From Zestosphaera tikiterensis (GTDB taxonomy: Archaea > Thermoproteota > Thermoprotei_A > Sulfolobales > NBVN01), in contig NBVN01000002.1 in assembly GCA_003056265.1 (NCBI GenBank), positions 83,700-147,699 on the forward strand: a stretch of DNA of 64,000 nucleotides. Direction: 5' to 3'. The translations under genes and the position numbers were made by a program. The stretch's first letter is position 1. Each line of letters starts with the position of its first letter. Shown in pieces: positions 9,075-38,072 of the stretch. Below the pieces are notes generated by a model that worked only from the letters and a program-made list of their open reading frames with translations, was not told the DNA's origin and searched no databases.

Positions 9075-10640
9075 TTATGAAATTACTTGTTTTTCTAGGT
9101 ATTCTCTGTAGAAGCCTTTAAGGTTCTTGTATAGTTTAGTAAAGTATTTGAATCTCTCCTCAAGGACTTTAGTAAGCTCTGGGTCGGGGTTGAATATCTT
9201 CTCCGGTTTGACGATTTTCTTAGCTATACTGAAGTCGAATGATTTAAGCCCTACTAACCCTATTATTGACGCTCCAATAGCTGACGCCTCTCTAGCGCTG
9301 GTAACACGTATAACCTTAGTGTTAAGTAGGCTAGCTAGGAACATACATAAGCTATTGTATAACGCCCCACCGCCAACTATGTTAACGTGGTCTACCTCCT
9401 TATTGAGGAGCCTCTTATAGTATGTATACGCCCATTTAACGTTGAATGCTATACCTTCAATAACCGCCTGCGCCACGTGTTCCAACCTGTTTTCTAAGCT
9501 GATGTTTACTATTCCGCCCCTAACGTACGGATCGTCTATTGGCGACCTCTCCCCGAACAACCACGGTAAAAATAATACTTTGTTATTCTTAGGATCTATA
9601 CTTGAAGCTAGTTCGTCTATCTTTTTATATAGGTCCTCCTTAACCTCCCCAAATATTGTTTGAAGGAACCAATCTATCGTGGCAGACCCCGTTTCCTGCT
9701 CAGCTATAAGCATATACCTACCCGGTATAGCGCTAGGTAAGCAACCCATGTAATGGTATACATCTATCTTACGCCGCGGTATATGAGCTATTATCCAGTC
9801 GCTCGTCCCCACATATATATGGATTTCATAGTCTTCAACCGCTCCCGAACCTACAGCTGTGGCGGTCATATCACCACATCCAACAACTACTTTTACGTCT
9901 TTCGAAAGACCTAATTCTTCAGCTGCCTCCTTAGCTAACGTACCAACTATATCGGTTGGTTGCTTAATTTCAGGTAGTTTGCTAGCGTCTAAGCCTACCG
10001 ATTTAATAAGGCTTTCACTCCACACCACAGCGGTTGGTGTTCTAGTGTCTGTAAGCCATGTGAGGTTAGCTTCGTCGGTGCTTATAACGGTTTTTCCAGT
10101 CATCTTATACGTTAAGTAACCTTTCACATCGAGGAACTTCCACGTCTCTCTATAGATGTCTGGCTGTTCATTCATTAACCATACATACTTCGATAATGGA
10201 TCCTTACCGGCTTTGCCTGGAACGCCCCCGCTTATTTGAAGGAATTTTATTAATTTGAAGACGTTATAGCCTGCGATCTTTGGGAATCCCTTAAATAATT
10301 CGCGTGGGTAGCCGGCTGACCTAGTGTCAAGCCATGTAAGTATGTTAGTTAGTGGGGTTCCGTCCCTCGACAACGGAACTACCCCAGCCATTTGAGTATC
10401 CATCACTATCCCCATTACATCCTCCGGGTTCACGCCAGCTTCATCGATAACTTTATTCGTAGCGTCTACAAGGGCCTTCCATAACTCGTCTGGTGATTGT
10501 TCAGCATGGCCTGGCTTAGGTATATAAAGGTTGAGCTTAGCAGTTGTTTTATAGCGTATGGTGCTGTTTGCCGCATCGAATAGAACGGTCTTTATGGAAC
10601 TAGTGCCTACGTCATATGCGAAAATATACATCTGCGTCAC
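9075..10640 (-). CDS. FGGY-family carbohydrate kinase
   Basis: 521 aa. The N-terminal YIFAYDVGTSSIKTVLFD and C-terminal GGGALYNSLCMF segments fit the FGGY kinase fold. It overlaps the upstream gene by 4 nt, which suggests an operon. The likely start is GTG at 10640 or ATG three codons downstream. Confidence 0.85.
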   Translation of the reverse strand: MTQMYIFAYDVGTSSIKTVLFDAANSTIRYKTTAKLNLYIPKPGHAEQSPDELWKALVDATNKVIDEAGVNPEDVMGIVMDTQMAGVVPLSRDGTPLTNILTWLDTRSAGYPRELFKGFPKIAGYNVFKLIKFLQISGGVPGKAGKDPLSKYVWLMNEQPDIYRETWKFLDVKGYLTYKMTGKTVISTDEANLTWLTDTRTPTAVVWSESLIKSVGLDASKLPEIKQPTDIVGTLAKEAAEELGLSKDVKVVVGCGDMTATAVGSGAVEDYEIHIYVGTSDWIIAHIPRRKIDVYHYMGCLPSAIPGRYMLIAEQETGSATIDWFLQTIFGEVKEDLYKKIDELASSIDPKNNKVLFLPWLFGERSPIDDPYVRGGIVNISLENRLEHVAQAVIEGIAFNVKWAYTYYKRLLNKEVDHVNIVGGGALYNSLCMFLASLLNTKVIRVTSAREASAIGASIIGLVGLKSFDFSIAKKIVKPEKIFNPDPELTKVLEERFKYFTKLYKNLKGFYREYLEKQVIS

Positions 10641-12729: not shown

Positions 12730-13965
12730 TCATAAGCCCAACATCATCGCCAACGAGCCTTTCTTATATGCTTCGATAGCTGCCTTCAACTCTGTATTTT
12801 CCTTAGCGTATTCCTCCAGCGGTATGTTCTTTAACGTAGCCTCGATTGCTTGCCTCATGGATTTAGCCCCAGCTCTTGAACCCATTGGGTGGGCGTGAAT
12901 TGCTCCTCCAGCTGATATACCCACGTCTACCCCTAAATCCTTCATTAACTGAGGTACGTGAAGCTGTGTTATCCCTCCTGAGGGGCATGGTAGTGTTGGT
13001 TTAATACCCTCCATTGGTGCTCGAAGATATTTAGCAACTCTAATATACTTCTCCTTAGTGTAGGTTGGGACCTTACCGTATGGTGCGGGGTAAATATTCA
13101 TGTCAGCTCCAGCCAGTCTAATCAGTTTTCCAAGTATGAGTGTAGAGCTTATCCCTCCGTAGGGAGATGTGTATATAGTTCCCGCGAAGTCTATGCTATG
13201 TGCTAAGATAGGTAGCTTAATGCTTGGATCCTCAGTTAGTGATTTAAAAGCTCCTAATCCAACTGATACAGCGTTAACCATTAAGGCATTAGCGCCTAGC
13301 TCCTGTGCTTTTTCAGCTAAGTCGAATAGCTTAGGTGGATCGCTTGTTATGTTGACTGTATATAGTTTCTTCTCACCTGTCTCAGCTACTGCTTTATCTA
13401 AAGCCTCCATGAACTTCACCACCCTTTCCTCTACTTTATTATAGCTTTGATTAGCTAGTAGTTCATCGTCTTTTATAATGTCTACACCGCCAACCCATGC
13501 TTCATAAGCTAGTTTCGCACCTATATCAGGTGGGTAGTATACGCAAGGCTTTATCATAGCGACTATGAAGGGCCTTTCGTGGATTCCCATAAGGTTTCTC
13601 AACCCTTCAACGCCGTATTTAGGTCCTTTGAAGAGCTTTAGATATTCCTTAGGCATCCATATATCTAGTAGTTTTATTTTACCGTAAGCCATTATATTGC
13701 CTGTGATGGTTGAAAAGATTACTGAAATATCGGATTCGAAATTTACCCATGGAAAGCCTATAGCTATGATGAACCACCTTAACCCTTCCTTAGGCGTTTC
13801 AGTCTCGTAGTCTGGGATTTCATATACTCCTAAGACCTTCGCTCCAATGTTCCTCCGCATCTCAGGAGTCTCCATAGGAGTTCTAATCCACGTACCCGTT
13901 GTCTGCTCAGCCGCTAAAGCTCTAGCAACTACATCAGGCTCGAAGCCTGAAGATATGCCAATCAT
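12730..13965 (-). CDS. RuBisCO large-subunit family protein, RuBisCO-like (form IV-like) by active-site pattern
   Basis: 411 aa with AAEQTTGTW, ITGN, MIKPCVYY, GGVDIIKDDE, ILAHS, PSGGI and SAGGAIHAHP. Homology continues 32 codons upstream of the track start (to 14061), with no usable start codon there; see findings. Confidence 0.85.
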   Translation of the reverse strand: MIGISSGFEPDVVARALAAEQTTGTWIRTPMETPEMRRNIGAKVLGVYEIPDYETETPKEGLRWFIIAIGFPWVNFESDISVIFSTITGNIMAYGKIKLLDIWMPKEYLKLFKGPKYGVEGLRNLMGIHERPFIVAMIKPCVYYPPDIGAKLAYEAWVGGVDIIKDDELLANQSYNKVEERVVKFMEALDKAVAETGEKKLYTVNITSDPPKLFDLAEKAQELGANALMVNAVSVGLGAFKSLTEDPSIKLPILAHSIDFAGTIYTSPYGGISSTLILGKLIRLAGADMNIYPAPYGKVPTYTKEKYIRVAKYLRAPMEGIKPTLPCPSGGITQLHVPQLMKDLGVDVGISAGGAIHAHPMGSRAGAKSMRQAIEATLKNIPLEEYAKENTELKAAIEAYKKGSLAMMLGL

Positions 13966-21484: not shown

Positions 21485-21667
21485 GTGAGGTTGAGTATGG
21501 ATCGTAGGTACGGGTGGATTATAGTAGATCCTAACATATGTCATGGAAAACCTGTGTTTAAAGGGACGCGTGTATTAGTTGCTGATGTACTTGATATGAT
21601 AGCTTCTGGGATGGGTATTGATGAAATTTTAGAGGAATATCCTCAATTAAGTATATGTTTTACGTAG
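21485..21667 (+). CDS. DUF433-domain protein, possibly 3'-truncated
   Basis: IVDPNICHGKPVFKGTRVLVADVLDMIASGMGIDEILEEYPQLS fits the DUF433 pattern. The usual C-terminal helix after YPxLs is missing. Confidence 0.6.
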   Translation: MRLSMDRRYGWIIVDPNICHGKPVFKGTRVLVADVLDMIASGMGIDEILEEYPQLSICFT

Positions 21668-21903: not shown

Positions 21904-24318
21904 TTAGCGGTAATACACTACTAGCGTTGTTGGGCTTTCTACTTCCACCCAAACGCTAAGGGGGCGGTCTTCGATATGTGGAGCTAGTTCTTTGGCGATG
22001 TAGTCAACCCATTGCTTATGGAATAGCGGTGAGTAGAGCTTAAGTACGTCCCAAGTCCATCGTATTCTCCACGAGTATTCCGACCTGCAGGCGTATGTAC
22101 ATGACGCACCTAGTATCGCCGCAAGTTCCTTACAAACATCATCAGCAAACTTGGAGGGGATCGCGTCACTGAAGTAGGTGTCCCTGTAATCCTTGCTTAA
22201 CTTATAGAACTCTACTGTGGGTCCGCCCTGTGTATCATATGACACTCTATAGACATACACATACCCTAATATGTTGACTTCATACTCAAGATAATCACTC
22301 CACTCCGCTACTGGTAGGTGCTGGTCTAAGACGAAGAGCGTGTCATTTATCTCTACGGCGGCTGTAGCGTGTCGGCCCTCCGTCGTGTTGAGTGAGAGGA
22401 TGTACACAGGTTTAACGCCAGCTGAGATGAGTGTAGCAACAAGAAAAACTGCGTAATCCGCACATACTCCGCTCCTCCTCTCGGCGAATTCTATCGGGTC
22501 GTATATATTTGAAACGCTTACTAGCCCTGCTTTCACATAATCGTACCCTGCATTCTCGTCAACCCACTCTAGAGCTTTCCAGGCGGCCTCTTTAACGTCT
22601 CTTGGGGGGACGTTATCATACACTAGTTTCCTTAGGTAGCTAATCGTAGTCTCGTTGAAAGAGCTAAGAATTACGTCATAGAATGTGTTTCCAAAACTTA
22701 AGGATCGTATAAAAATAACGTTTTCACATCCCCCGAAACTCATTGATTTCTTACTCCAGTCGACGCGCAACTCACATGTCTTGCTAACGTCGTATAAATC
22801 AATCTCGAAATTCGATATCCCGGCTCTCTTTAATGCCTCTAGTATTTCGTTTAGTGGGAATAGGGCTTTAGCATATGTCTTATTAACGAACACGTACGCA
22901 GCGATAACATGTGATGTGCTTGGATCTATGGGGTAGGGCGTTAAATGAAGTTTATACTCACCCCCCTTGATAACGAAGTAGGGATAGCTAGGCTTCCCGC
23001 TCCAAAACTCCTCTATGATTAAGTGCGTATCGTTTACGTAGATTTTCATGGAGCCGAGGTCGAGGCGCTCCCTATATTGTTGAAGCATGCTGGGTGTAAA
23101 CGGTGATGTCTCACGTAATAAAGCTGTAGTTGCAGTCGTAGTTGTAGGTACAAGGCTAACTAGTACATCAGACTTAAGACTTTCTGCCGTAGTCGTAGGT
23201 GGGGTTTCGTTGAGTTGTTGATGGAAAAGTAAACTAGCAGTAGGCAGTAGTGCTAAAACAGCTATCAGCGCAATCACAACCTTAGCAAAAACACTTAATC
23301 GTTTTGATCTTACCTCTTTTCCTTGCGAGTCCACTGTTGTCCTACCGATTTCAGTGCTTCTTTCTTCAGTGCCGACCGTAATTGTTCTCAAGCATCCTTC
23401 AGTCCCTGCTTCTTTTTCATTTGGTTCGTACTCAATTCGAACCGGTATAACATATTCTTTATCTTTAGCCTCTAAGCGTTCTTTCGGTCGTTCGCTAACG
23501 ATGCGGGACGTCCATGAAGCAATTACATCGCTTACTGATCTGAGTGTTTTAAATCTAACGTCTGCTCTCGCGAGATCGGGTAGTAACTTGATATCTTGTA
23601 TCTTCGCAGCCGCTTTAATTACGTTTGGATGTTCAAGTACTTGCTTAAGCACTTCCCTAAGGTCTAGCCCTAACCTCAGCTCGGTATTTAGGGAGCTGAA
23701 ATAAGAATATACGCTATCAATCGCCATAGCTACGCAGTACGCCGTCCTACAGAACCCTAATGACGTAGTAAGCTTCTCAGATTGCTCGCGTATAAAGCTC
23801 TCAAGCATAGACTCTACGTATGAGGCCATCTCCGCATGAGTAGGCATTCTTTGTGAATAGGGCCTCTCCTTAAACCCCATAGCTTCTAAGAACTCACCAA
23901 CGGACTGGCTATAACCTACCGCCCCGCTCTTACTTCTTTCCCCCAACCCTAGGTAAGTCCTCACAACCTCCCTAACCTTTACGTACACATCGGGTTGCAA
24001 TACAGGGATAACGCCATCCTCGACAAACGCCCTCCCGCGATTCGTGACCGTATATAAGATTTTCTCGAGCTCGGAGGTAGTGCCGTACACATTTATATAC
24101 TTCCGCATGTGTAGCGTTTGTATATCGCGGTAAAGCTCTGAATGAATAGTGGAAGAGACTGCGACGTCAGCGTAGAGTCCCTCGAAGTAATTACTCAATT
24201 CTGGAACTGAAGACTGAACACGTAATACAAGCTCTTTAAGCCTATCCATACCTTTGACGCTATTGGCAAGATATACCACAAACAACGGTAGAGCGTATCT
24301 AGGGAGCTTCACATTCAC
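21904..24318 (-). CDS. membrane protein: cytoplasmic N-domain, single TM, Thr-rich linker, extracellular transglutaminase-like domain
   Basis: 804 aa. The TM segment is VFAKVVIALIAVLALLPTASLLF, followed by PPTTTAES...PTTTTATTA. A C-terminal Cys-His-Asp core is present (SGVCADYAVF ... GRHATAAV ... VLDQH), along with many N-x-S/T sequons. An alternative start at MDRLKELV is possible. Confidence 0.7.
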   Translation of the reverse strand: MNVKLPRYALPLFVVYLANSVKGMDRLKELVLRVQSSVPELSNYFEGLYADVAVSSTIHSELYRDIQTLHMRKYINVYGTTSELEKILYTVTNRGRAFVEDGVIPVLQPDVYVKVREVVRTYLGLGERSKSGAVGYSQSVGEFLEAMGFKERPYSQRMPTHAEMASYVESMLESFIREQSEKLTTSLGFCRTAYCVAMAIDSVYSYFSSLNTELRLGLDLREVLKQVLEHPNVIKAAAKIQDIKLLPDLARADVRFKTLRSVSDVIASWTSRIVSERPKERLEAKDKEYVIPVRIEYEPNEKEAGTEGCLRTITVGTEERSTEIGRTTVDSQGKEVRSKRLSVFAKVVIALIAVLALLPTASLLFHQQLNETPPTTTAESLKSDVLVSLVPTTTTATTALLRETSPFTPSMLQQYRERLDLGSMKIYVNDTHLIIEEFWSGKPSYPYFVIKGGEYKLHLTPYPIDPSTSHVIAAYVFVNKTYAKALFPLNEILEALKRAGISNFEIDLYDVSKTCELRVDWSKKSMSFGGCENVIFIRSLSFGNTFYDVILSSFNETTISYLRKLVYDNVPPRDVKEAAWKALEWVDENAGYDYVKAGLVSVSNIYDPIEFAERRSGVCADYAVFLVATLISAGVKPVYILSLNTTEGRHATAAVEINDTLFVLDQHLPVAEWSDYLEYEVNILGYVYVYRVSYDTQGGPTVEFYKLSKDYRDTYFSDAIPSKFADDVCKELAAILGASCTYACRSEYSWRIRWTWDVLKLYSPLFHKQWVDYIAKELAPHIEDRPLSVWVEVESPTTLVVYYR

Positions 24319-24511
24319 AAAGCACCTACAAGATACTTACATGAGTAAGATAAAAATTAATAAAATAAATTAATTTGACGCCAATCAGCTTAGTTCTTCC
24401 TCGACTACCTCTAGTTTGCTTCACAAGCGTTTCTTAGACCTAGATAATGAACGTGGACACCTTACCCCACAAATTTAAATATTATTCACAATTAAGGTAT
24501 TTAGTAGGGAT

Positions 24512-25567
24512 TTGGTGTTAAGCCTTGAAGACGAGATAAAGAGGTTTGTAATCTGTACGGATACTTGTCGAACCGTTGACTGTGTTCTTGTGTGTCTCTC
24601 TTTGGCGTTTTCCGAGATTAGCGATTTTGTCAAGGGTTTTCCGACAAGTGCTAGTGAGGAAAAATTGGTCAATGACTTTCTTAATCACCCTGATGTTAAG
24701 AGGGGTTTAGCGGGATTAACTGGTAGCACAGGAGCCTTAGAGATCAAGATTAATAAGGATCCCCGCTTTAAAAATCTCCGTCAATACATTCCTCAGATAA
24801 TAGACGTCATTAGACACGCTTCCGCAGAATATGCTCCTCAACGAGTATACCAAGACATTGAAAGACCCCCGTTATGGCGTATAGAGTACGAAGAGCGCGA
24901 AGCTGGGAAAATAGATGTGAGGGAGGTAACGCATCATACGAGCTACAAGAAATCCTATGCTGAGCGGTCTAGCAAAGAGACGAACATGGATTCCGGAAAG
25001 GCATATACTGTGCCAGTATTGCATCTAGATGAGACTCGGGGTGAGGAGAAAGGTAGAAGACACCTATCTCTCAGGATAAACACTTCGAAAACTTCTTTAG
25101 TTTTGTATGTACTGATGTTATTGATAAACGCTTATGTGTTTATAGAGATTCCATGGGTATCATACTACGGTAAGCAATACCGTATAGGTACACTGGAGAT
25201 TACAGAAGTTAGAGCAACTTATACAGGGTGGGATATGACACGCTTCTTTATAGAGCTTTGGCGACTTTTCAATGTACGTCCGCCAATATTTATGGTGTAC
25301 TTTATCGGTTTGCTTATAGCGGTTATAGCTCTCGTAGTGAAATCTCCAGCTTTATCGACGATTTCTGGGTTGGCGATGCTTATCGGGTGGAACGATTTCT
25401 ATACATCGGCCACTCTACTTTACAAACTCTATCTCCAGCTCGTAGGTCTTCTCGGACTTATCTCCATAGAGTCCGCAGAATTGGAAGTAGGAGCAACACT
25501 TGGAGGTATTCTGTCGCTCCTACAATTAGTGATCGGAACATACTTAATTTACAAAGCATCGCACTGA
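24512..25567 (+). CDS. polytopic membrane protein; its cytoplasmic N-domain is paralogous to part of the 21904-24318 product
   Basis: 351 aa. It shares CRT..CV, L.HP.V, RFK.LR and RIEYE..EAG blocks with the divergent neighbour. The C-terminal half has 4-5 hydrophobic helices. Confidence 0.6.
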   Translation: MVLSLEDEIKRFVICTDTCRTVDCVLVCLSLAFSEISDFVKGFPTSASEEKLVNDFLNHPDVKRGLAGLTGSTGALEIKINKDPRFKNLRQYIPQIIDVIRHASAEYAPQRVYQDIERPPLWRIEYEEREAGKIDVREVTHHTSYKKSYAERSSKETNMDSGKAYTVPVLHLDETRGEEKGRRHLSLRINTSKTSLVLYVLMLLINAYVFIEIPWVSYYGKQYRIGTLEITEVRATYTGWDMTRFFIELWRLFNVRPPIFMVYFIGLLIAVIALVVKSPALSTISGLAMLIGWNDFYTSATLLYKLYLQLVGLLGLISIESAELEVGATLGGILSLLQLVIGTYLIYKASH

Positions 25568-25685: not shown

Positions 25686-27101
25686 ATGAGTATAAAACAA
25701 ACGTTTTCAGAGGTAAAGATTCTTGCTATAGTAGCCACATTACTTATTCTATCACATCTTTTAATCATCGCTAAAGTGATGTATGCTCAAAGTACTGAAT
25801 ACACATATGCTATAGCTGTGGTGAGTGTGCGTGCTGGTGTTAGAATTTCGTCTGGAACCTTTAAGATAGAGACTCCCAAACACCTGCTAGTAAACAGGAA
25901 TAACATTTTGAAGGTGTATTTTGAAAGAAGTGGAGATAGCAATGATGTTATTGTAATATTTACAATAGGAGCAAGAATTAACACTGCCGACGGTAGTAAA
26001 GAGTATAGTCTTCAAACAGTTTCATTTCCGCTAAAAGGTGATGCATCACAGCAAGCTTTGATAGATTTTAACGTTCCAGAGGAACTATATAGACAATCAA
26101 CAGATAAAAAAGTAAAGGTATTCGTGAAAGGTATGGTTTGCTCGCCAATGTATATAAGCACGTTCATTGATACGTGTAATATCGGTGAGAATATTCCTGC
26201 TGAAGCTTACCTTGTTTACGGCGTTCCTCAGCCTCAGTTGTCTGTGAGGGGTTTAGGTCTTGGTTATGTGAATATGTCGGTGGGCGAAGTTAGGAGTATA
26301 TTTATTGATGTTAATGCTATGTATGCACCAATACTTGTGAGAAGTGTCGACATATCTATCCCATCGTTTGTGGCTGTCTACATAAATACCCCGCTTCCTC
26401 TAAATGTAGGTGTTAATGAGTCTATACCTATCGCAATATCTGTGAAGGGTGTTCAGCCTGGTGCTGGGGTTATTGACGTAGCTATTCGTTATTATACAGG
26501 AGTTGATGAAAGGTACATCACCATATATATACCTGTCGTAGTTGAAGAGAAACACATCTTTGAACTTATTAATCAATACAGGTATGAATTGCAACAATTG
26601 CTACAAGATGTTGAAAATCTTGAGACACAACTAAATATAAGAATCAGCGATATACACGATTTGACACAGAGACTTGCAACAATATTCAATACGTTAGTAA
26701 ATCTTGAGCGTCAATATAGCGAAGCATTAAATAAGATAGACATAGCTTCATCGAAAACATCACAACTTAGCAATAGTATCACCAGCTTAACACAGCAACT
26801 CAATCAAGTCAATATAGAGATAGCTAACCAGAAAACAACGTTAGAAACACTTAATCGGTATACTAATAGCTTATCACAGCAAATTCAGCAACTAACACAA
26901 CAAATAAACCAAATAGAGAAAACTATAAACAATCTAAGCAGTTCAGTAAAAGACATCAGAGGTTACATAGACGAGCAGGACACCTCAATAAAAGAACTAC
27001 AGCAAGTTATAGACAGAAACACTATATTGGTCTTAGGAATCACAGGCATATCCATAGCTACATTGATATTAGTTATAAGAATCATTAAAGGCAGATATTA
27101 A
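25686..27101 (+). CDS. envelope protein with N-terminal signal/TM, beta-rich region, long Q/N-rich coiled coil and C-terminal TM anchor
   Basis: 471 aa. The N-terminus is ILAIVATLLILSHLLIIAKVMYA. Heptad-like repeats span residues ~285-445 (LTQQLNQVNIEIANQ, IQQLTQQINQIEKTINN). The C-terminus is ILVLGITGISIATLILVIRII. Confidence 0.65.
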   Translation: MSIKQTFSEVKILAIVATLLILSHLLIIAKVMYAQSTEYTYAIAVVSVRAGVRISSGTFKIETPKHLLVNRNNILKVYFERSGDSNDVIVIFTIGARINTADGSKEYSLQTVSFPLKGDASQQALIDFNVPEELYRQSTDKKVKVFVKGMVCSPMYISTFIDTCNIGENIPAEAYLVYGVPQPQLSVRGLGLGYVNMSVGEVRSIFIDVNAMYAPILVRSVDISIPSFVAVYINTPLPLNVGVNESIPIAISVKGVQPGAGVIDVAIRYYTGVDERYITIYIPVVVEEKHIFELINQYRYELQQLLQDVENLETQLNIRISDIHDLTQRLATIFNTLVNLERQYSEALNKIDIASSKTSQLSNSITSLTQQLNQVNIEIANQKTTLETLNRYTNSLSQQIQQLTQQINQIEKTINNLSSSVKDIRGYIDEQDTSIKELQQVIDRNTILVLGITGISIATLILVIRIIKGRY

Positions 27102-27445: not shown

Positions 27446-28321
27446 CTAACTTAACAACGATAGTAGCGCAAGTAACGTGATTAATGCTGTCAGCCCTATT
27501 AAAAAATATCCTATTAAGAGGTAGGGGCGTATTCTTCTCTTTACGTCTAATACAACTTTAACGTTGTTGCTTCCTATAGGTATGTTTATATACTTATCGT
27601 TTGGTGCGATTTTCTTTAATACTTCTCTAGTTCGTTCATCCATTATTGTAGCTTCTTTAATTTTATTGGGTATTATTATTTTAATTTCTGAATATTTTTT
27701 AACGGGTATTATTAATTCACCGTTATCTCCCGTTTTCATTGTAGCTTCATTAGCTATGATTATTCCTTTTTCAGGTGTTTCAACGTAAATTTTTACGTCA
27801 TAATTTGAAAGAGGTTTTTTGCCTTTCTGCACAATTATTTTTACCCCAACTATATCGCGTTGGTCGGCCTGACCTAAGGATTCCATATACTTAGTATACT
27901 GCTTCAGTATTTCCTCCGTAGGCAGTTTTCGTGAGGATTTTATAGTTAAAGAACATCCTGAAGCTAGTAATATTTCCTTTAAATATGGGTACATTAATGG
28001 TGCTCTATAGTACGTTACAAACGTTAATCGACCAATCTCTTGCCTGAAGACGTTGACATCAATCTTACCGCTAACTAAGAAATGTTTTAAATTATTGAGG
28101 GTATCTATAACTACTTCCTCAAATTTTTTACCGGCATCTTCATGGACGACCTCAACACGAGCGCCTTCATCTTCATTATACCACGTTACCGTCTTCCTAT
28201 GTTCGATGTTTTTCCTATAGAATCTTGTGAAAAGCTCCGCAACAATTACGTTATATTTTCTTGTTAAGAAATCGTGTAAATCCTCGATCAAGTTCACACA
28301 CTCAAGTTTATAAGAATTCAC
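27446..28321 (-). CDS. tail-anchored protein with a carboxypeptidase-regulatory-like beta-sandwich segment
   Basis: 291 aa with no N-terminal signal. VKIIVQKGKKPLSNYDVKIYVETPEKGIIIANEATMKTGDNGELIIPV resembles prealbumin-like fold domains. The C-terminal TM is LLIGYFLIGLTALITLLALLSLL. Confidence 0.5.
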   Translation of the reverse strand: MNSYKLECVNLIEDLHDFLTRKYNVIVAELFTRFYRKNIEHRKTVTWYNEDEGARVEVVHEDAGKKFEEVVIDTLNNLKHFLVSGKIDVNVFRQEIGRLTFVTYYRAPLMYPYLKEILLASGCSLTIKSSRKLPTEEILKQYTKYMESLGQADQRDIVGVKIIVQKGKKPLSNYDVKIYVETPEKGIIIANEATMKTGDNGELIIPVKKYSEIKIIIPNKIKEATIMDERTREVLKKIAPNDKYINIPIGSNNVKVVLDVKRRIRPYLLIGYFLIGLTALITLLALLSLLS

Positions 28322-32129: not shown

Positions 32130-32223
32130 CGCGGCCTGCGGCCGCGACTCCGGTTGATCCTGCCGGACCCGACCGCTATCGGGGTGAGGCTAAGCCATGG
32201 GAGTCGAACGCCTCGAACACCGA

Positions 32224-32257
<34 letters not shown>

Positions 32258-32423
32258 CTACCCTCGGGACGGGGACAGTCCCGGGAAACTGGGGCTAATA
32301 CCCGATAGGTGAGGGCGCCTGGAAGGGTCCCTCACCGAAAGGGCTTCACGGGGATGTCCGTGAAGCCGCCCGAGGATGGGGCCACGGCCTATCAGGTAGT
32401 TGGCGGGGTAACGGCCCGCCAAG

Positions 32424-32462
<39 letters not shown>

Positions 32463-32469
32463 ATGGGCC

Positions 32470-32514
<45 letters not shown>

Positions 32515-32612
32515 CTCCGCAATGCGGGAAACCGTGACGGGGTCACCCCGAGTGCCCCGAAGAGGGGCTTTTCCCCGCTGTAAATAGGCGGGGGAATAAG
32601 CGGGGGGCAAGT

Positions 32613-32649
<37 letters not shown>

Positions 32650-32701
32650 ACCAGGCCTCACCCATTAACCTATTTAAACATGGGTTGAGGTCCGGCGCGG
32701 A
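32650..32701 (+). other. 16S mini-intron 1 (52 nt, ORF-less hairpin)
   Basis: It interrupts the conserved CCAGCCCCGCGAG | TGGTCGGGACGG. The insert folds as GGCCTCACCCAT...ATGGGTTGAGGTCC. Boundaries are good to a few nt. Confidence 0.75.
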
Positions 32702-32839
32702 TGGTCGGGACGGTTATTGGGCCTAAAGCGCCCGTAGCCGGCCCGGTAAGTCCTCCCTTAAAACTCGGGGCTCAACCCCGAGCCGGGGAGGATACTGCCG
32801 GGCTAGGGGGCGGGAGAGGCCGAGGGTACTCCCGGGGTA

Positions 32840-33511
32840 ATGGAGGAATCTTGGGCAGGACCGCTTTATAGGGGGAAGTTTCTATTTACAATATTTACAA
32901 TAGGGAGTTATGATGTGTGAAGCATACTTAGCTGGATTAATAGCTGCTGATGGACACATTAATCCTAAGGATTACTCGATAACAATATATACGGGTGATC
33001 TTGGGAGAGCACAGACTATAAAGAATATGCTGGAAAAGCTAACCTGCAATAAAGTTAGTATCAGAAACCATAATGGAGCATATGAAGTCACTGTAACAGA
33101 TAAGAAGCTTACATTAAAGTTTTCCACTAAATACATGATCCCTATTGGTAGGAAGTCTGAACAAATAATATTACCAACAACCAATATTAATAAGAGGGAA
33201 TTATTAGAATTCATAGCTGGATACTTTGATGGTGACGGCTCAATATACAGACGTATACATAGGGCAAGGGATGGTAGAATCAGAGTTTACTACGAGGTAA
33301 AAGTTAAGAGTAAGAGCTTATACTTCCTTAATCAATTGAGAAACCTACTTGCCTCATACAACATAGTTTCTCGTGTGAAAGTATATAAAAACATGATTCC
33401 GTACCTTGTTGTTTCACGTAAAGGCGATGTTATACGGTTCTTTAGAATTTTTAAACCAAGATTTAAAAACCTTTAAAACCCCTAAACCCTGCCTGGGATC
33501 CTCCACCCCAA
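32840..33511 (+). other. 16S intron 2 (672 nt) carrying a LAGLIDADG ORF
   Basis: It interrupts CTCCCGGGGTA | GGGGCGAAATCCGATAATCCCGGGAGGACC. The termini GGAGGAATCTTGGGCAGG and CCTGCCTGGGATCCTCC are complementary, and the interior is AT-rich. Confidence 0.85.
32910..33476 (+). CDS. double-motif LAGLIDADG homing endonuclease (intron-encoded)
   Basis: 188 aa with LAGLIAADG and IAGYFDGDG motifs ~100 residues apart. It lies wholly inside the 16S intron. Confidence 0.88.
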   Translation: MMCEAYLAGLIAADGHINPKDYSITIYTGDLGRAQTIKNMLEKLTCNKVSIRNHNGAYEVTVTDKKLTLKFSTKYMIPIGRKSEQIILPTTNINKRELLEFIAGYFDGDGSIYRRIHRARDGRIRVYYEVKVKSKSLYFLNQLRNLLASYNIVSRVKVYKNMIPYLVVSRKGDVIRFFRIFKPRFKNL

Positions 33512-33596
33512 GGGGCGAAATCCGATAATCCCGGGAGGACCACCAGTGGCGAAGGCGCTCGGCTGGAACGCCCCCGACGGTGAGGGGCGAAAGCCG

Positions 33597-33630
<34 letters not shown>

Positions 33631-33731
33631 CGGCTGTAAACGATGCGGGCTAGCTGTTGGACGGGCTTAGAGCCCGTCCAGTGGCGCAGGGAAGCCGTTA
33701 AGCCCGCCGCCTGGGGAGTACGGCCGCAAGG

Positions 33732-33775
<44 letters not shown>

Positions 33776-33890
33776 GCCTGCGGCTCAATTGGAGTCAACG
33801 CCAGGAATCTTACCGGGGGCGACAGCAGGATGATGGCCAGGCTAACGACCTTGCCGGACACGCTGAGAGGAGGTGCATGGCCGTCGCCAG

Positions 33891-33932
33891 ACACGCCTAT
33901 GGCAAGATCAAGGATGCCATGGCGTGGGCGAA
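33891..33932 (+). other. 16S mini-intron 3 (42 nt)
   Basis: It interrupts GGCCGTCGCCAG | CTCGTGTTGTGAAATGT. The hairpin is CACGCCATGGCA...TGCCATGGCGTG. Confidence 0.75.
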
Positions 33933-34077
33933 CTCGTGTTGTGAAATGTCTGGTTAAGTCCAGCAACGAGCGAGACCCCCACCCCTAGTTGCTACCCGGC
34001 TCTTTTGGGTCGGGGCACACTAGGGGGACTGCCGCCGTTAAAGGCGGAGGAAGGAGGGGGCCACGGCAGGTCAGCAT

Positions 34078-34109
34078 AAGGGTCTGGCTTTAAGGCCGAC
34101 CCTGCTGAA
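34078..34109 (+). other. 16S mini-intron 4 (32 nt)
   Basis: It interrupts GGCAGGTCAGCAT | GCCCCGAAACCCCCGGGCTGCACGCGGGCTACAATGG. The hairpin is AGGGTC...GACCCT. Confidence 0.7.
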
Positions 34110-34266
34110 GCCCCGAAACCCCCGGGCTGCACGCGGGCTACAATGGCGGGGACAGCGGGATCCGACCCCGAAAGGGGGAGGTAATCCCTCAAACCCCGCC
34201 GTAGTTGGGATCGAGGACTGTAACTCGTCCTCGTGAACGAGGAATCCCTAGTAACCGCGCGTCAAC

Positions 34267-34317
<51 letters not shown>

Positions 34318-34384
34318 TCCGAGTGAAGAGGGGGTGAGGCCCACTCTGCCGGGGTTTCCCGGTAGGGTGGGTCGAACCTCCTCT

Positions 34385-34449
<65 letters not shown>

Positions 34450-34548
34450 ACGACGGGTTTGAGGGCCTACCTACGTGAGAGTTTGGGGTGATCCCTTGAT
34501 GAGGCTCGGGTCTTAGACCCGAGTTGATGGCGTGATTATGTTGATGAA

Positions 34549-34591
34549 CGCCACGCACAGGTTCCAACGCAACTGTACTAACCAACACCCG
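34549..34591 (+). other. 5' strand of the 23S processing stem (pairs with 39099-39141)
   Basis: CGCCACGCACAGGTTC pairs with GAACCTGTGCGTGGCG, and GTACTAACCAACACCCG pairs with CGGGTGTTGGTTAGTAC. A ~10-nt internal mismatch separates the two helices. Confidence 0.8.
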
Positions 34592-34980
34592 AGGCGTCGG
34601 CGCGAAGCCGTCTGGTGGATGGCTCGGCTCGGGCGCCGATGAAGGGCGCGGCAAGCGGCGATATGCCCGGGGTAGGCGCAAGCAGCCGTCGAACCCGGGA
34701 TTCCCGAATGGGACTTCCTGCTGAGGGTTAACAGCCCTCAGCGCCCCCATTCGGGGGCGGGAACCCCCCGAACGGAAACATCTTAGTAGGGGGAGGAAAA
34801 GAAATCAAATTGAGATCCCCTGAGTAGGGGCGACCGAAAGGGGGACAGCCCAAACCAAATCCCCACGGGATAACCGTGGGGAGATGTGGGGTTATCGGCT
34901 CCACGGCTGGGGCTCGACCCCAGCGAGCCGACCCACCGTAGCCGAAGTGGGCTGGAATGCCCCACCGTAGAGGGTGACAG

Positions 34981-35019
34981 TCTGGGGGCAGGCGTTGATT
35001 GCTCTGCCCTCAGGTCAAC
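34981..35019 (+). other. 23S mini-insert 1 (39 nt), probable intron
   Basis: It interrupts GAGGGTGACAG | TCCCGTAGGC (compare bacterial GUGACAGCCCCGUA). The hairpin is GGGCAG...CTGCCC. Confidence 0.6.
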
Positions 35020-35872
35020 TCCCGTAGGCTAAACGGTGGGGGCTCGTGCCGTGGAGCAGAGTACCACGGCTTGGTTTTGCCGTGGGAAGTCGGGGGTCAC
35101 CGACCTCCAAGGCTAAATACGTCCCGAGACCGATAGCGCACTAAGTACCGTGAGGGAAAGCTGAAAAGTACCCCGGAAGGGGGGTGAAAAGAGCCTGAAA
35201 CCAGGCGGCTAATAACGGTGCGGCTCGAAAGGGGTGAATCCCCCCGAAGGAAAAACGGGTGACCGTTGAGTACGAGGGGGGAGGACCGGGGTCGCACCGT
35301 CCGTCTTGAAACACGGGCCGGGGAGTTCACGGCAGTGGCGAGCTTAAGGGGGTTAACCCCGAAGGCGTAGGGAAACCGACCTGCCCGCAGCGGGAAACCG
35401 TGAGGGGCGGGGTCTGCAAGGGCCTGGAGTCACTGCCGTGAGACCCGAAACCGGGCGATCTAGGCGGGGGTAGGGTGAAGCCGGGGGAAACCCCGGTGGA
35501 GGCCCGAAGGGGTGCTGACGTGCAATTCGCTCCTCTAACCTCCGCCTAGGGGCAAAAGACCAATCTAGCCCGGTGATAGCTGGTTCCCTCCGAAGTGTGT
35601 CTCAGCACAGCCCCGCTGGAGGTGGGTCACGGGGTAGAGCTACGGATTGAGGGTGCCGTGAGCCGGAAGGCTCCGGGCTCTCAGTCCAACTCCGAACCCG
35701 TGGCCACCGTAGAAGGCGGGAGTGGGGCGCCCCGGGGTAAGCCTGGGGGCCGAGAGGGGAACAACCCAGGCCGGGGTTAAGGCCCCAAAGTGCCGGCTAA
35801 GTGCCAAACGTAAAGGGCGTCCGCGGCCTAAGACAGCGGGAAGGTGGGCCTAACAGCAGCCATCCTCTAAAG

Positions 35873-35899
35873 GCAGGGCCTAAAACCCTGCCGGGGAGG
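35873..35899 (+). other. 23S mini-insert 2 (27 nt), probable intron
   Basis: It interrupts CCATCCTCTAAAG | GAGTGCGTAA. The hairpin is GCAGGG-CCTAAAA-CCCTGC. Confidence 0.55.
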
Positions 35900-35909
35900 G
35901 AGTGCGTAA

Positions 35910-36635
35910 GCCACTTATCTCTCCGCCAATTTTAAAATGAATCGTACTGCATAATAATGGGTCGAGTATGTAAAATGACTGAGAGGATATATTTAAAAGC
36001 ATATATTGCTGGTGCTTTAAGAGACGGTTACATTGGAAGGTATGTAGAAAGAAAGAATAGCAAGGAGCATTGGGTGCTGAGAATATATAGCAAGGATGTA
36101 GAATGGCTTAATGAATTGGTTAAAATACTCAAGTACGCATATGGATTTGAGACAAATGTGATAATCCCACATAGAGGTATACCGTATATAGAGAAATACT
36201 CAAAGAAAATAGTGGAGCATATCGCTAAAGAGTTAAACCACCCAATAGGTAAATCAATAAACTGGGACACGCCAATGTTCATTAAAAACACCAACGATAA
36301 GGGTATATGGAGGTATTACATAGCTGGATTCTTCGATGCAGAGGGTGGAGTGGATATAACTAAGAAGCAATTGAAGATATACCAATCATGGAGAGGTGAA
36401 GTATGTCCCCCATTAATGGATATAAAAGATAAGATGCTAACTCTTTTTGGAATAGAGAGTGGGGAAGTATCCAGGTACCCTAATAGAAGATACAACCCAA
36501 GATTCGTTGTAAGAATAAAGAAAAAATACACATATATGTTTTACAAAACTTTCCCATTATTAAACCCATCTAAAATAAACAAGATCAAGCTCATTATTTA
36601 AATCCTTTTAGGGCGGAGGGATGGTGGCCGCAAAA
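35910..36635 (+). other. 23S intron 3 (726 nt) carrying a LAGLIDADG ORF
   Basis: It interrupts GAGTGCGTAA | CAGCTCACCCGCCGAGG. The termini GCCACTTATCTCTCCGCC and GGCGGAGGGATGGTGGC are complementary. Confidence 0.85.
35957..36601 (+). CDS. double-motif LAGLIDADG homing endonuclease (intron-encoded)
   Basis: 214 aa with YIAGALRDG and IAGFFDAEG motifs. Confidence 0.85.
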   Translation: MGRVCKMTERIYLKAYIAGALRDGYIGRYVERKNSKEHWVLRIYSKDVEWLNELVKILKYAYGFETNVIIPHRGIPYIEKYSKKIVEHIAKELNHPIGKSINWDTPMFIKNTNDKGIWRYYIAGFFDAEGGVDITKKQLKIYQSWRGEVCPPLMDIKDKMLTLFGIESGEVSRYPNRRYNPRFVVRIKKKYTYMFYKTFPLLNPSKINKIKLII

Positions 36636-37462
36636 CAGCTCACCCGCCGAGGCCGCGGGCCCCGAAAATACGTCGGGGCTTAAGCCGGCCGCCGAGACCC
36701 CGGGGCACGGCCTCCATGAGGCCGTGATCCGGTAGGAGGGCGTCGGGATGGGGTAGAAGTCGGGCCGTGAGGTCCGATGGACCCGTCCCGAGTGCGGATC
36801 CCGGCGGTAGTAACAGCAAAGTGGGGTGAGAATCCCCACGGCCGGAAGGGCCAGGGTTCCTCAGCAACGGTCGTCAGCTGAGGGTTAGCCGGTCCTAAGG
36901 CAGGCCGTAACTCGGTCCTGCCGAAAGGGAAACGGGTTAATATTCCCGTGCCGCGGAGGTAGGTGCGGCAACGCAAGCCCGAACCCTGACGCGTCGAGGT
37001 AGGCCGACCGAGGCAGCCGCCTCGGCTAACTACCCGAAGGCCGGGGAGTGCCGTAACGGCGAGAACCGGCTGAAGGGAGGAATGGCCCCCGTTAGGGGGT
37101 TCGGCCGAGCCTCGGCGCCCTTGAAAAGGGGTTCGGGAACGAACCTCCGCGACCGTACCGAGAACCGACACAGGTGCCCCTGGGTGAGGAGCCCAAGGCT
37201 TGTGGGGGCTAACCCAGGCTAGGGAACTCGGCAAATTAGCCCCGTAACTTCGGGATAAGGGGTGCCTGCGGTTCTGCGGAAAACCCGTGGAACCGCGGGT
37301 CGCAGTGACAAGGGGGTCCTGACTGTTTAATAAAAACATAGCTCCCCGCTAGTCCGAAAGGATTAGTACGGGGGGTGAATCCTGGCCACTGGCGGTACGT
37401 GAAGCCGGGGTACAACCCGGTGAAGCGCCGCTGAAGGCCGGGGGTAACTCTGACCCTCTTAA

Positions 37463-38046
37463 CGGGGGTCTCCCACCCGCTAGCAACACGGTAGTTTATA
37501 CTTATTACATGGGTGGAAAAGATGCAACTGGGACTGGTGAGGTAATGAGGCCAGAAATAATAGGATATGTTGTGGGCTTCATTGATGCTGAAGGGAGTTT
37601 CTCAGTGAGCGTGAAGTTACAGAAAGACGTTGTATATGGAGTGAGGCTTGATCCCGTCTTCAGCATAACTCAGCAAGGGAGGGAGCCTCTTGAAGTTATC
37701 GCTGATGTACTTAATGCGGGAAGAATAATTCGAAAGCCTGGTCAAAGACACCTGTGGTTGCTTATAGTAGATAGAATGAGTGAGCTGACTCAGAGCTTAA
37801 TACCGTTCTTGGACAAATACAGGGATCTCCTTCTAGCTAAGAGAGAAATATATGAGCTGTTTAGGGAGATAGTCATTGGCTTGCATAGTGGAATGCATAA
37901 AAGACCTGCGGGTCTTAAGAAGCTTGTGACTTTATCTTACAGCCTCTCTAGATTGAACTCGAAGGCCCATAGAAAGAGGGCCCTTAAACAAATTTTAGAA
38001 ATAATCGATTCCCGTGTTGCCGAGTGGGGGGAGCCCCCGGGAGATA
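37463..38046 (+). other. 23S intron 4 (584 nt) carrying a single-motif LAGLIDADG ORF
   Basis: It interrupts GGTAACTCTGACCCTCTTAA | GGTAGCCAAATGCCTTGCCGGGTAAG. Confidence 0.85.
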
Positions 38047-38051
38047 GGTAG
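37509..38051 (+). CDS. single-motif LAGLIDADG homing endonuclease (intron-encoded)
   Basis: 180 aa with one VVGFIDAEG motif near the N-terminus. The stop codon TAG (38049-38051) lies in the downstream exon sequence GGTAGCC. Confidence 0.85.
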   Translation: MGGKDATGTGEVMRPEIIGYVVGFIDAEGSFSVSVKLQKDVVYGVRLDPVFSITQQGREPLEVIADVLNAGRIIRKPGQRHLWLLIVDRMSELTQSLIPFLDKYRDLLLAKREIYELFREIVIGLHSGMHKRPAGLKKLVTLSYSLSRLNSKAHRKRALKQILEIIDSRVAEWGEPPGDR

Positions 38052-38072
38052 CCAAATGCCTTGCCGGGTAAG

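Follow-up and report, generated by a model that had tools for sequence, protein, structure and literature searches.

The two genes we investigated, A and B, stand head to head in a window of 64,000 nucleotides from Zestosphaera tikiterensis, and each encodes one copy of the same five-helix domain, about 110 residues long and placed before the first membrane helix. This module defines an undescribed, lineage-restricted domain family and behaves as a portable juxtamembrane head. The copies in A and B represent two old subfamilies, type-2 and type-1, respectively, and A is a mosaic of the two. The features of the locus are as follows, with positions counted from the first letter of the window.

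21904 to 24318, minus strand: gene A, 804 aa with a GTG start (ORF call); from N- to C-terminus a winged-helix-like domain, type-2 module, linker, one membrane helix, Thr/Pro-rich stalk and transglutaminase-like ectodomain
23953 to 24318, minus strand: probable winged-helix domain of A, MarR/PadR-like, cytoplasmic side, aa 1-122 (AF2, profile, Foldseek)
23458 to 23838, minus strand: type-2 module of A, aa 161-287, with the motifs CRTAYCVAMAIDS and DVRFKTLRS (BLASTP against B, family HMM, hhalign)
23425 to 23439, minus strand: RIEYE linker motif of A, aa 294-298, on the type-1 side of the mosaic junction
23224 to 23280, minus strand: hydrophobic core of the predicted membrane helix of A, aa 347-365, N-terminus in and C-terminus out (hydropathy scan)
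22285 to 22608, minus strand: DUF553 (PF04473) transglutaminase-like core of A, aa 571-678, with Cys619, His650 and Asp665 (Pfam)
24319 to 24511: AT-rich divergent spacer, 193 bp, with two separate TATA-like elements
24512 to 25567, plus strand: gene B, 351 aa with a TTG start (ORF call); from N- to C-terminus a type-1 module, disordered charged linker and multi-pass membrane domain
24512 to 24841, plus strand: type-1 module of B, a five-helix bundle, aa 1-110 (AF2, family HMM)
24863 to 24895, plus strand: conserved linear motif RPPLWRIEYEE of B, aa 118-128, between bundle and membrane
25088 to 25564, plus strand: multi-pass domain of B, aa 193-351, with 4-5 predicted membrane helices (hydropathy scan)
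25686 to 27101, plus strand: 471-aa neighbour with signal sequence, beta-rich domain, coiled coil of about 150 aa and C-terminal membrane helix
27446 to 28321, minus strand: 291-aa neighbour with a C-terminal membrane helix

The product of gene A is 100% identical to the NCBI entry 'hypothetical protein B7O98_01645 [Zestosphaera tikiterensis]', which is annotated with 802 aa and the GTG at 24312 as its start. The gene is also present in an independent assembly (L007), which represents the window locus itself, sampled elsewhere. For gene B, other gene calls start at the GTG at 24515 and give 350 aa. Eight homologues share the architecture of B: P0001, which comes from the window's own locus and is 100% identical, and seven others with 45-54% identity.

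The shared module and its place in the two proteins

A first-pass annotation of this DNA had described A and B as a pair of paralogues with a common inner module and different outer parts, and had named shuffled controls, a pairwise HMM alignment and a comparison of predicted structures as ways to check the homology. Each of these agrees with a homologous module in both proteins, and the motifs quoted at the time are all found in A and B. Residues 190-305 of A align with residues 19-132 of B at 28% identity (BLASTP, E=8e-6). The Smith-Waterman score of 85 for A against B compares with 40 ± 5.7 for shuffled B over the full length and 34 ± 5.2 for the N-terminal parts, and was reached by none of the 1000 shuffles in either test (z about 8-10). 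A profile-profile comparison with hhalign, in which A and six relatives formed the type-2 alignment and B and three relatives the type-1 alignment, gave a probability of 98% and E=1.5e-13 over 126 columns. We built the family HMM from the matches of a seed profile with seven sequences; it recovers B at 6e-42, A at 1e-25 and no other segment of the six-frame translation of the window. Because both of these modules were part of the seed, the scores are corroboration rather than an independent test.

The predicted folds likewise agree helix by helix. In the AF2 model of A the helices of the module span residues 161-188, 193-214, 220-228, 231-237/243-252 and 254-287, and in that of B residues 2-17, 22-42, 49-57, 60-82 and 84-106, with pLDDT above 90 for aa 11-110 of B. 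With an offset of 171 residues, the boundaries of helices 2 and 3 and the start of helix 4 agree within about one residue in models that were made separately, as monomers. An alternative explanation is that the similarity reflects chance, or the common composition of two helical juxtamembrane segments, and the identity of no more than 28% over about 120 residues of helical sequence could be read in this way. However, the shuffles, the strong match of both genes to the family profile, the hhalign result and the coincidence of the helix boundaries rule out such an origin, to which we assign next to no probability.

In both proteins the module is followed by a basic stretch and then a membrane helix, as the first reading had it: KEVRSKRLSVFAK precedes the hydrophobic core at aa 347-365 in A, and EEKGRRHLSLRINTSK precedes a predicted helix at about aa 194-216 in B. 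Five K/R residues fall within the 13 positions ahead of the membrane helix of A, and six N-x-S/T sequons lie after this helix, with the 337 residues ahead of it free of them. As marked by the charge distribution and these candidate glycosylation sites, the module is on the cytoplasmic side.

The outer parts do differ as had been described: B continues into 4-5 predicted membrane helices, and A into a Thr/Pro-rich stalk, which follows its membrane helix, and an ectodomain with an intact Cys-His-Asp triad. The ectodomain matches DUF553 (PF04473) with 106.1 bits (cut-off 20.5, E=1.3e-30), as do 18 of the 54 longer members of the module family. In the aligned family ectodomains the cysteine and histidine are present in 17 of 17 sequences and the aspartate in 16 of 17 (C619, H650 and D665 in the 804-aa numbering of A). 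In the passage of PMC10318531 that cites it, DUF553 is family 3 of the 1999 description of the transglutaminase-like cysteine protease superfamily by the Koonin group. The ectodomain of A shares with that superfamily an above-cut-off score and the triad; however, the likeness covers the outer part of A only, and the shared module lies outside Pfam.

A lineage-restricted family and the mosaic origin of A

A search for the module in other archaea, which the first-pass annotation had also proposed, recovered 114 representative proteins among 1.84 billion (E<=1e-3). Every named carrier is from Desulfurococcales-type archaea; these include Zestosphaera, Ignisphaera, Staphylothermus, and MAGs labelled Desulfurococcaceae, Desulfurococcales or Sulfolobales. 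The module has no match in Pfam, NCBIfam, PADLOC or PHROGs, and a Foldseek search of the B module against the PDB returned nothing below E=0.7.

A membrane helix lies downstream of the module in at least 98 of the 114 representatives, after a median gap of 31 residues. Beyond this helix there is nothing in 47, a large ectodomain in 26 (mostly transglutaminase-like or CAP), and a multi-pass domain in 18. The commonest form is the module with a C-terminal membrane anchor; further forms add an ectodomain (transglutaminase-like or CAP) or a multi-pass domain, have the module twice in tandem, or begin with a winged-helix-like domain. The earlier picture of one inner module joined to different bodies can thus be extended to CAP domains, tandem copies and a sole C-terminal membrane helix. 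Two modules in tandem occur in the single chains of P0042, P0045, P0046, P0055, P0070, P0090 and L012_759, an arrangement that fits a self-pairing domain. The multi-pass body of the B type, for which Pfam has no match, is also found behind tandem modules (P0070, P0045) and behind another N-terminal extension (P0074).

The most conserved motif of the module, D-P-R-F-K-x-L-R-x-Y, is partly basic and located at the junction of helices 4 and 5. A C-x4-C pair occupies the junction of helices 1 and 2 in both A and B, with each cysteine kept in about 55% of the 126 aligned module copies. About half of these copies are accompanied by a motif of the RPPLWRIEYEE type, at which AF2 confidence is low in B (aa 118-128); a distant tail-anchored member from Staphylothermus hellenicus has it as TPPALWVKEYRE.

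The term paralogue pair suggests a local duplication, and in this respect the first reading does not hold: A and B are 28% identical, and each is closer to its own subfamily. The nearest relatives of the A module, P0034 and P0143, both shorter proteins, have 53-54% identity to it, and those of the B module are P0002-P0007 with 48-54% and P0008 with 45%. The mosaic nature of A is revealed by the different affinities of its parts. Residues 1 to about 279, comprising the winged helix and the type-2 module, resemble proteins without an ectodomain, and the sequence from RIEYE onward resembles type-1 transglutaminase proteins; RIEYE itself is missing in P0034 and P0143 and found in the type-1 transglutaminase proteins P0016 and L012_759. 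Both halves exist as separate, adjoining genes in a related metagenome contig (L012), and a transglutaminase remnant is found at another locus (L011). The mosaic structure and the winged-helix-like domain at residues 1-122 had both been overlooked in the earlier reading.

This N-terminal domain of A is probably winged-helix-like, of the MarR/PadR kind, as judged from its predicted model. AF2 places helices at 9-18, 24-37, 39-43, 55-71, 93-106 and 109-122 and strands at 20-22, 75-78 and 88-91, with a pLDDT of about 80-90; the hairpin formed by E75-78 and E88-91 corresponds to the wing after the recognition helix. The order of helix, strand, helices, recognition helix, beta-hairpin wing and two helices is that of MarR and PadR proteins, and weak profile and fold matches connect A to MarR (3f3x, 6pco), PadR and VanR. 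For a profile of A and six relatives, the best PDB match is the MarR chain 3f3x_A (E=1.1e-3), with 6pcp/6pco at about 0.01; in Foldseek, the N-terminal part of A is most similar to MukF (E=1.9e-3), with matches to PadR/VanR and MarR as well, none below 1e-3, and those to MarR/PadR at probability 0.8-0.93 and E>0.05. These values leave the winged-helix assignment short of formal significance. In contrast to these proteins, the domain of A is tethered to the membrane and has no MarR/PadR match in Pfam; neither Pfam nor NCBIfam matches residues 1-122 at E<=1. Two properties make DNA binding by this domain doubtful: its pI varies between 5.4 and 9.4 from one relative to another, and several of them have many acidic residues in the putative recognition helix.

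Spacer and gene neighbourhood

The head-to-head arrangement across an AT-rich spacer is as had been reported: the coordinates agree, and the 193 bp have 32.6% G+C, compared to about 42% in the window. A TATA-like element for A lies at 24350-24376, read on the minus strand, and one for B (TTTAAATA) at 24474-24481. They are located about 30-55 bp upstream of their own start codons and about 100-125 bp from each other, and the repeats in the spacer are short and at chance level, with none resembling an operator. On this reading of the sequence, separate core promoters seem more likely than one bidirectional promoter for both genes, the kind of control region proposed earlier.

The head-to-head arrangement of A and B is not conserved and was found in this genome only (L007 being the same locus). 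A single module gene is present at five other family loci (L001, L002, L004, L013 and L017), and in L012 a type-2 gene adjoins a type-1 gene in an arrangement unlike that of the window. What accompanies the orthologues of B is not A but homologues of the 471-aa and 291-aa neighbours: the 471-aa protein is 34% identical (E=9e-80) to the product of the gene directly downstream of a B orthologue in L008, and the 291-aa protein 30% identical (E=2e-42) to that of the gene directly upstream of a B orthologue in L010. A weak relative of the 471-aa protein is encoded head to head with the type-2 gene P0041 in L014, and a membrane HExxH peptidase gene adjoins type-2 genes in L011 and L012. Family gene neighbourhoods are heterogeneous and point to no pathway; no genes for an archaellum or type IV pili were found in the window between 12 and 31 kb, the segment that was annotated, or in L011-L014.

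The 471-aa neighbour is similar to SlaB, the S-layer stalk protein of Sulfolobales, in size (471 vs 475 aa) and in its order of signal sequence, beta domains, long coiled coil and C-terminal membrane helix. However, its matches are limited to the coiled coil (PDB 8qox_B, E=0.0046), it scores 26.9 bits against the SlaB model NF040788, below the cut-off of 700, and no slaA-like gene lies beside it.

Possible roles of the module

We infer, with modest confidence, that the module serves as a portable domain for coupling or assembly next to the membrane, and that A resembles the membrane-tethered regulator ArnR. As a protein-protein coupling or oligomerisation domain, it would hold membrane-anchored bodies in homo- or hetero-oligomers, or dock them on a common cytoplasmic partner, with the D-P-R-F-K-x-L-R-x-Y motif and the linker motif R-P-P-x-W-x-I-E-x-E-E as likely contact sites. 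Within A, the module would join the extracellular transglutaminase-like domain to the cytoplasmic MarR-like winged helix, in the layout of a membrane-tethered one-component regulator such as ArnR of Sulfolobus or ToxR/CadC of bacteria. B, as a member that has no such output domain, would act with the two surface-protein genes downstream of it. Most family members lack a winged helix, which excludes regulatory output as a role common to the whole family.

Known archaeal regulators with a membrane tether are very few, and ArnR is the main example. ArnR and ArnR1 of Sulfolobus acidocaldarius are membrane-bound one-component regulators of archaellum and pili, with an N-terminal HTH, a cytoplasmic helical region (HAMP plus sensor) and a C-terminal membrane anchoring (PMC6396743). 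Compared by layout, the order of HTH, cytoplasmic helical region and C-terminal anchor recurs in P0034, P0043, P0047 and P0057, and A, by layout alone, has the same order with an ectodomain added; ArnR, in contrast, ends in two membrane helices and lacks a large ectodomain, and no HAMP match was found in A or B in Pfam at E<=1. The likeness to ToxR/CadC and to anti-sigma factors is an analogy of layout only, in the order of cytoplasmic winged-helix or helical domain, basic stretch, single membrane helix and extracytoplasmic domain. In ToxR/CadC, however, the OmpR-type winged helix adjoins the membrane without an intervening five-helix bundle, and the HxxxCxxC of the anti-sigma ZAS domain is missing in the module, which has CxxxxC only. 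Archaea have no sigma factors.

Several other readings can be weighed against this one. A and B might be a dedicated pair, co-regulated from the divergent spacer, whose modules bind as a heterodimer or as alternative partners of one factor. Their head-to-head position points in this direction, and so do the tandem modules and the differently arranged type-2 and type-1 neighbours in L012, both of which are compatible with module-module pairing; however, the finding of this arrangement in one genome only, the loci with a lone module gene, the linkage of B orthologues to the 471-aa and 291-aa neighbours, the distance between the TATA-like elements and the lack of a convincing shared operator repeat in the spacer make such a pair unlikely. 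A more far-reaching version, which we consider quite improbable, is that the module is the heterotypic pairing domain of a combinatorial membrane signalling network, in which type-1 proteins carrying extracellular enzymes, CAP domains or multi-pass bodies would dock on winged-helix type-2 proteins and hold, release or modulate their output. With its undescribed fold, such a network would give archaea an equivalent of the anti-sigma/sigma or ToxS/ToxR pairs. The membrane HExxH peptidase beside type-2 genes might govern the release, and A would be a natural sensor-output fusion with B as a competing or modulating partner next door.

The family may instead be an envelope-assembly scaffold and not a signalling system, in which the module, and in A a protein-binding winged helix, would anchor surface enzymes and stalk proteins to a scaffold in the cytoplasm or membrane, in concert with the SlaB-like coiled-coil protein encoded beside B. 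This would agree with the conserved position of B-type genes beside a beta-rich, coiled-coil protein with a C-terminal membrane helix, with its weak relative head to head with P0041, and with ectodomains of the transglutaminase-like and CAP types usual in surface remodelling; moreover, the winged helix and helical bundle of MukF, the best Foldseek match, bind proteins, and the winged helix is basic in some relatives, not all. However, only the coiled coil matches SlaB in sequence, with scores far below family cut-offs, and many family loci have no neighbour of the 471-aa type, so that we regard a scaffold as rather unlikely. Finally, the module could be a cytoplasmic sensor of redox state, metal or a small ligand that acts via CxxxxC and passes a signal to the membrane or outer part, an idea suggested by the presence of this pair in both A and B and by the description of the corresponding region of ArnR as HAMP plus sensor (PMC6396743). 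The incomplete conservation of each cysteine, the variable histidine of LNHP, the lack of any further conserved metal ligand and the absence of a HAMP or other sensor-domain match in Pfam render a sensor very improbable.

The coupling of the cell surface to the cytoplasm in hyperthermophilic Thermoproteota is poorly understood. The locus described here defines a compact cytoplasmic domain that is confidently modelled (pLDDT above 90 in B), new to Pfam, NCBIfam and the PDB, and recombined with at least five kinds of partner, and one natural mosaic joins a probable winged helix on the inside to a transglutaminase-like domain with an intact triad on the outside. If the module is merely a structural spacer, the result is a useful domain annotation and little else. 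If it is a pairing or relay domain, it would open a way into a signalling or envelope-assembly system specific to this lineage, and a function would be assigned to more than 100 protein clusters that are now labelled hypothetical.

A homologous module in two divergent membrane proteins

The two head-to-head reading frames described in the first-pass annotation are present, and encode proteins that we refer to as A and B:

21904-24318, minus strand: A, 804 aa
24512-25567, plus strand: B, 351 aa

The annotation had also aligned an N-terminal part of B with an internal part of A, and this similarity exceeds that of shuffled controls. The observed Smith-Waterman score is 85, a value reached by none of 1000 shuffles (40 +/- 5.7 for full-length sequences, 34 +/- 5.2 for the N-terminal parts), and BLASTP aligns residues 190-305 of A with residues 19-132 of B at 28% identity (E=8e-6). 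The family HMM recovers A (1e-25) and, more strongly, B (6e-42); its seed included both window modules, so that these scores corroborate the homology and are not an independent test of it. The six-frame translation of the window holds no third match to this HMM. The module occurs in two subfamilies, type-1 (B-like) and type-2 (A-like), whose profiles match each other with 98% probability (E=1.5e-13, 126 columns). Chance similarity is ruled out by the shuffles together with the profile tests.

AlphaFold models the module of B with confidence, at pLDDT above 90 in residues 11-110, as a bundle of five helices that is joined to the membrane by a disordered, charged linker. The predicted folds of the two modules agree, and the alignments from which they were computed were mostly separate: seven rows for B, including the module of A, and type-2 sequences only for A. 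At the offset of 171 taken from BLAST, the two models agree within one residue in helices 2 and 3 and at the start of helix 4. The two modules are homologous and of the same fold class, and neither outcome that the first-pass annotation had set as a refutation, shuffle-level alignment scores or unrelated predicted folds, occurred.

Predicted helices of the two modules (AlphaFold, aa)
B: 2-17, 22-42, 49-57, 60-82, 84-106
A: 161-188, 193-214, 220-228, 231-237/243-252, 254-287

The membrane helix of A is preceded by basic residues and followed by a Thr/Pro-rich stalk, and six N-x-S/T sequons occur after the helix, whereas the 337 residues ahead of it hold none. Taken together, these features suggest that the module lies in the cytoplasm. 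The ectodomain beyond the stalk is an ordinary DUF553 member with an intact Cys-His-Asp triad; a PDB sequence search returned no match for it.

Range and architectures of the module family

By profile search (E<=1e-3), only 114 of 1.84 billion representative proteins carry the module. The named carriers are Zestosphaera tikiterensis, from which the window comes, Ignisphaera, Staphylothermus hellenicus and MAGs labelled Desulfurococcaceae, Desulfurococcales, Sulfolobales or Thermoproteota, with no other names among them, and all are annotated either as "hypothetical protein" or, after their ectodomain, as "transglutaminase-like domain-containing protein". The module is a domain family undescribed in the libraries that we searched. 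A membrane helix follows it in 98 of the 114 representatives, at a median gap of 31 residues, and what is attached varies:

Architectures among the 114 representatives
Module and C-terminal membrane helix alone (tail-anchored layout): 47
Module and large ectodomain: 26
Module and multi-pass domain: 18
Module, membrane helix and short tail: 7
Membrane helix not found, mostly fragments: 16

The module keeps a constant juxtamembrane position next to a variety of partners. Pfam matches among the 54 longer members are to DUF553 (18), Transglut_core (11) and CAP (6). In family proteins P0010 and P0042 a CAP ectodomain (PF00188) replaces the transglutaminase-like one, in P0042 behind two tandem modules. 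Tandem modules are found in several family proteins, and the multi-pass body of B recurs both behind tandem modules and behind another N-terminal extension, which indicates that head and body have both been shuffled.

Conservation is strongest in the hydrophobic core residues and in two motifs. The first, D-P-R-F-K-x-L-R-x-Y, lies at the helix 4/5 junction; the second, R-P-P-x-W-x-I-E-x-E-E, is linear, follows the bundle and is present in about half of the copies, distant ones included. A defence or viral origin is unsupported by PADLOC and PHROGs: neither matched A, B or the 291-aa gene that lies downstream of B, and the 471-aa gene next to B gave coiled-coil matches alone, which we treated as noise.

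A is a mosaic of type-2 and type-1 parts

The view of A and B as a recent pair is not borne out by their closest relatives. B is a type-1 member whose nearest homologues have the same architecture and 45-54% identity to it. A is nearest to P0034 and P0143, two family proteins from other loci that match its residues 1 to ~279 at 53-54% identity; in both, a domain of about 120 residues at the N-terminus is followed by a type-2 module (CRSAYCVAMKIDS ... DVxFKxLQ) and a membrane helix, and an ectodomain is absent. These two relatives emerged from a search with residues 1-345 of A; the full-length search returned A alone, transglutaminase words saturating the candidates. Beyond about residue 400, A instead resembles the ectodomains of P0016 and a 759-aa protein at locus L012, two proteins with type-1 modules, at 55-80% identity when scored over stretches of 40 residues, and the RIEYE motif of A (aa 294-298) falls on the type-1 side of the junction. 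A is unchanged in two independent assemblies and is therefore no artefact of assembly. Its mosaic composition is solid.

At L012, the genes for P0143 and the 759-aa transglutaminase adjoin each other convergently. At L011, a 95-aa ORF (10255-10542) comes after P0034; it is 55% identical to A, links the first and last parts of a transglutaminase ectodomain and appears to be a deletion remnant of a transglutaminase gene. The L011 contig also carries a Piwi-domain (Argonaute-like) gene (842-2197).

Several relatives have tandem modules, and the N-terminal 168 residues of A were considered as a degenerate first copy; hhalign gives this a probability of 0.7%, and the region is winged-helix-like. 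The AF2 model has the topology of a winged helix whose wing is a beta-hairpin, a profile built from A and six relatives matches MarR-family PDB chains (best E=1.1e-3), and Foldseek finds MukF, PadR/VanR and MarR structures (best E=1.9e-3). Each of these lines is weak, but they are concordant and point to a winged helix. DNA binding by this domain is uncertain, given that its pI varies between 5.4 and 9.4 across relatives and that its putative recognition helix is on the acidic side. The start codon of A could be any of three within window positions 24249-24318:

24318, minus strand: GTG, 804 aa
24312, minus strand: GTG, 802 aa (NCBI)
24249, minus strand: ATG, Met24

Conservation of the first 20 residues (LPRYALPLFVVYLA) among relatives speaks for one of the upstream starts.

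A conserved trio of genes (L012, 1508-2962; L011, 7190-8641) precedes the type-2 genes P0143 and P0034, respectively:

Members of the trio upstream of P0143 and P0034
70-aa hydrophobic protein: weak holin-like Pfam match
229-aa protein: without any match
171/172-aa membrane protein: HEYAH motif; weak match, below cut-off, to DUF3267 "putative zincin peptidase" (E=3.9e-4)

The trio makes proteolysis a candidate means of controlling a membrane-tethered winged-helix protein. When searched by tblastn with the 70-aa protein of L012 and with the 229-aa and 171/172-aa proteins of both loci, the window yielded no homologue.

Gene neighbourhoods and the possible role of the module

A and B do face each other across a 193-bp AT-rich spacer (32.6% G+C, against ~42% for the window). 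The shared bidirectional control region that the first-pass annotation thought probable looks less likely than separate core promoters: each gene has a TATA-like element of its own, ~30-55 bp upstream of its start codon, and we found no convincing shared operator in the spacer, where a repeat search yielded 8-nt direct repeats, weak AT-rich inverted repeats and nothing more.

24350-24376, minus strand: AT-rich TATA-like element of A
24474-24481: AT-rich TATA-like element of B, TTTAAATA

Both elements were read from the sequence, and would fit two separate core promoters with leaderless transcripts.

The genome scan gave three loci and the metagenome scan two, one of them duplicating a genome-scan locus, so that neighbourhood statistics refer to about 12 loci. 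Among the loci examined, the head-to-head order of A and B is found in this genome only, and a single module gene is present at L001, L002, L004, L013 and L017. B orthologues go instead with the genes downstream of B: at L008 the gene directly downstream of the B orthologue is 34% identical (E=9e-80) to the 471-aa gene (25686-27101), and at L010 the one directly upstream of the B orthologue matches the 291-aa gene (27446-28321) with 30% identity (E=2e-42). Together with B, these two genes thus make up a trio that is loosely conserved. The parts of the 471-aa protein are a signal sequence, a beta-rich region, ~150 residues of coiled coil and a membrane helix at the C-terminus; the protein is like SlaB in layout and size, with sequence similarity at the coiled-coil level only. 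At L014, the type-2 gene P0041 is head to head with the gene for a weak relative of this protein. The 291-aa protein has a C-terminal membrane helix but no signal sequence, and no family match was found for it.

The remaining neighbours in the window are housekeeping genes (SBF transporter, dihydroxy-acid dehydratase, ABC transporter, DHH phosphoesterase, rRNA operon). A 60-aa DUF433 ORF (21485-21667; E=2e-19) separates the 3' end of A from the SBF transporter gene and is also called in L007, the same locus from another sample. A RuBisCO large-subunit homologue of 411 aa is encoded at 12730-13965. The rRNA operon (32147-39097) has long insertions, its 16S gene measuring 2301 nt against a 1478-nt model and its 23S gene 4507 against 2987. 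Inside the inserts are the following:

32910-33476: LAGLIDADG homing endonuclease ORF
35957-36601: LAGLIDADG homing endonuclease ORF
37509-38051: LAGLIDADG homing endonuclease ORF

These inserts indicate one intron in the 16S and at least two in the 23S gene; rRNA introns are known for Desulfurococcales and Thermoproteales.

Firm ground is reached for the domain and the mosaic, but not for function. We propose that the module may serve as a cytoplasmic coupling or oligomerisation domain. Tandem copies fit pairing between modules, as do the two differently arranged loci at which type-1 and type-2 genes are neighbours, and the conserved surface motifs would be candidate contact sites. A dedicated pairing of A with B is a rival reading that we consider unlikely. 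A role as an envelope scaffold, with the winged helix binding protein, seems comparably improbable. A Cys-based sensor is more doubtful still: A and B share a CxxxxC pair that could be a metal or redox site, but each Cys is only ~55% conserved in the family.

ToxR and CadC are membrane-tethered one-component regulators, and the layout of A could be that of an ArnR- or ToxR/CadC-like protein of this kind. ArnR, also a membrane-tethered one-component regulator (PMC6396743), is the closest known system by layout; its HAMP domain has no Pfam match in A or B, and its archaellum linkage has no counterpart at the family loci examined. The finding, whether seen as a membrane-tethered winged-helix protein or as a shuffled juxtamembrane domain, belongs to a general kind already known. 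With the module as a coupling or oligomerisation domain, A would have its extracellular transglutaminase-like domain joined through it to the cytoplasmic winged helix, and B, without a winged-helix output domain, may go with the two adjoining surface-protein genes.
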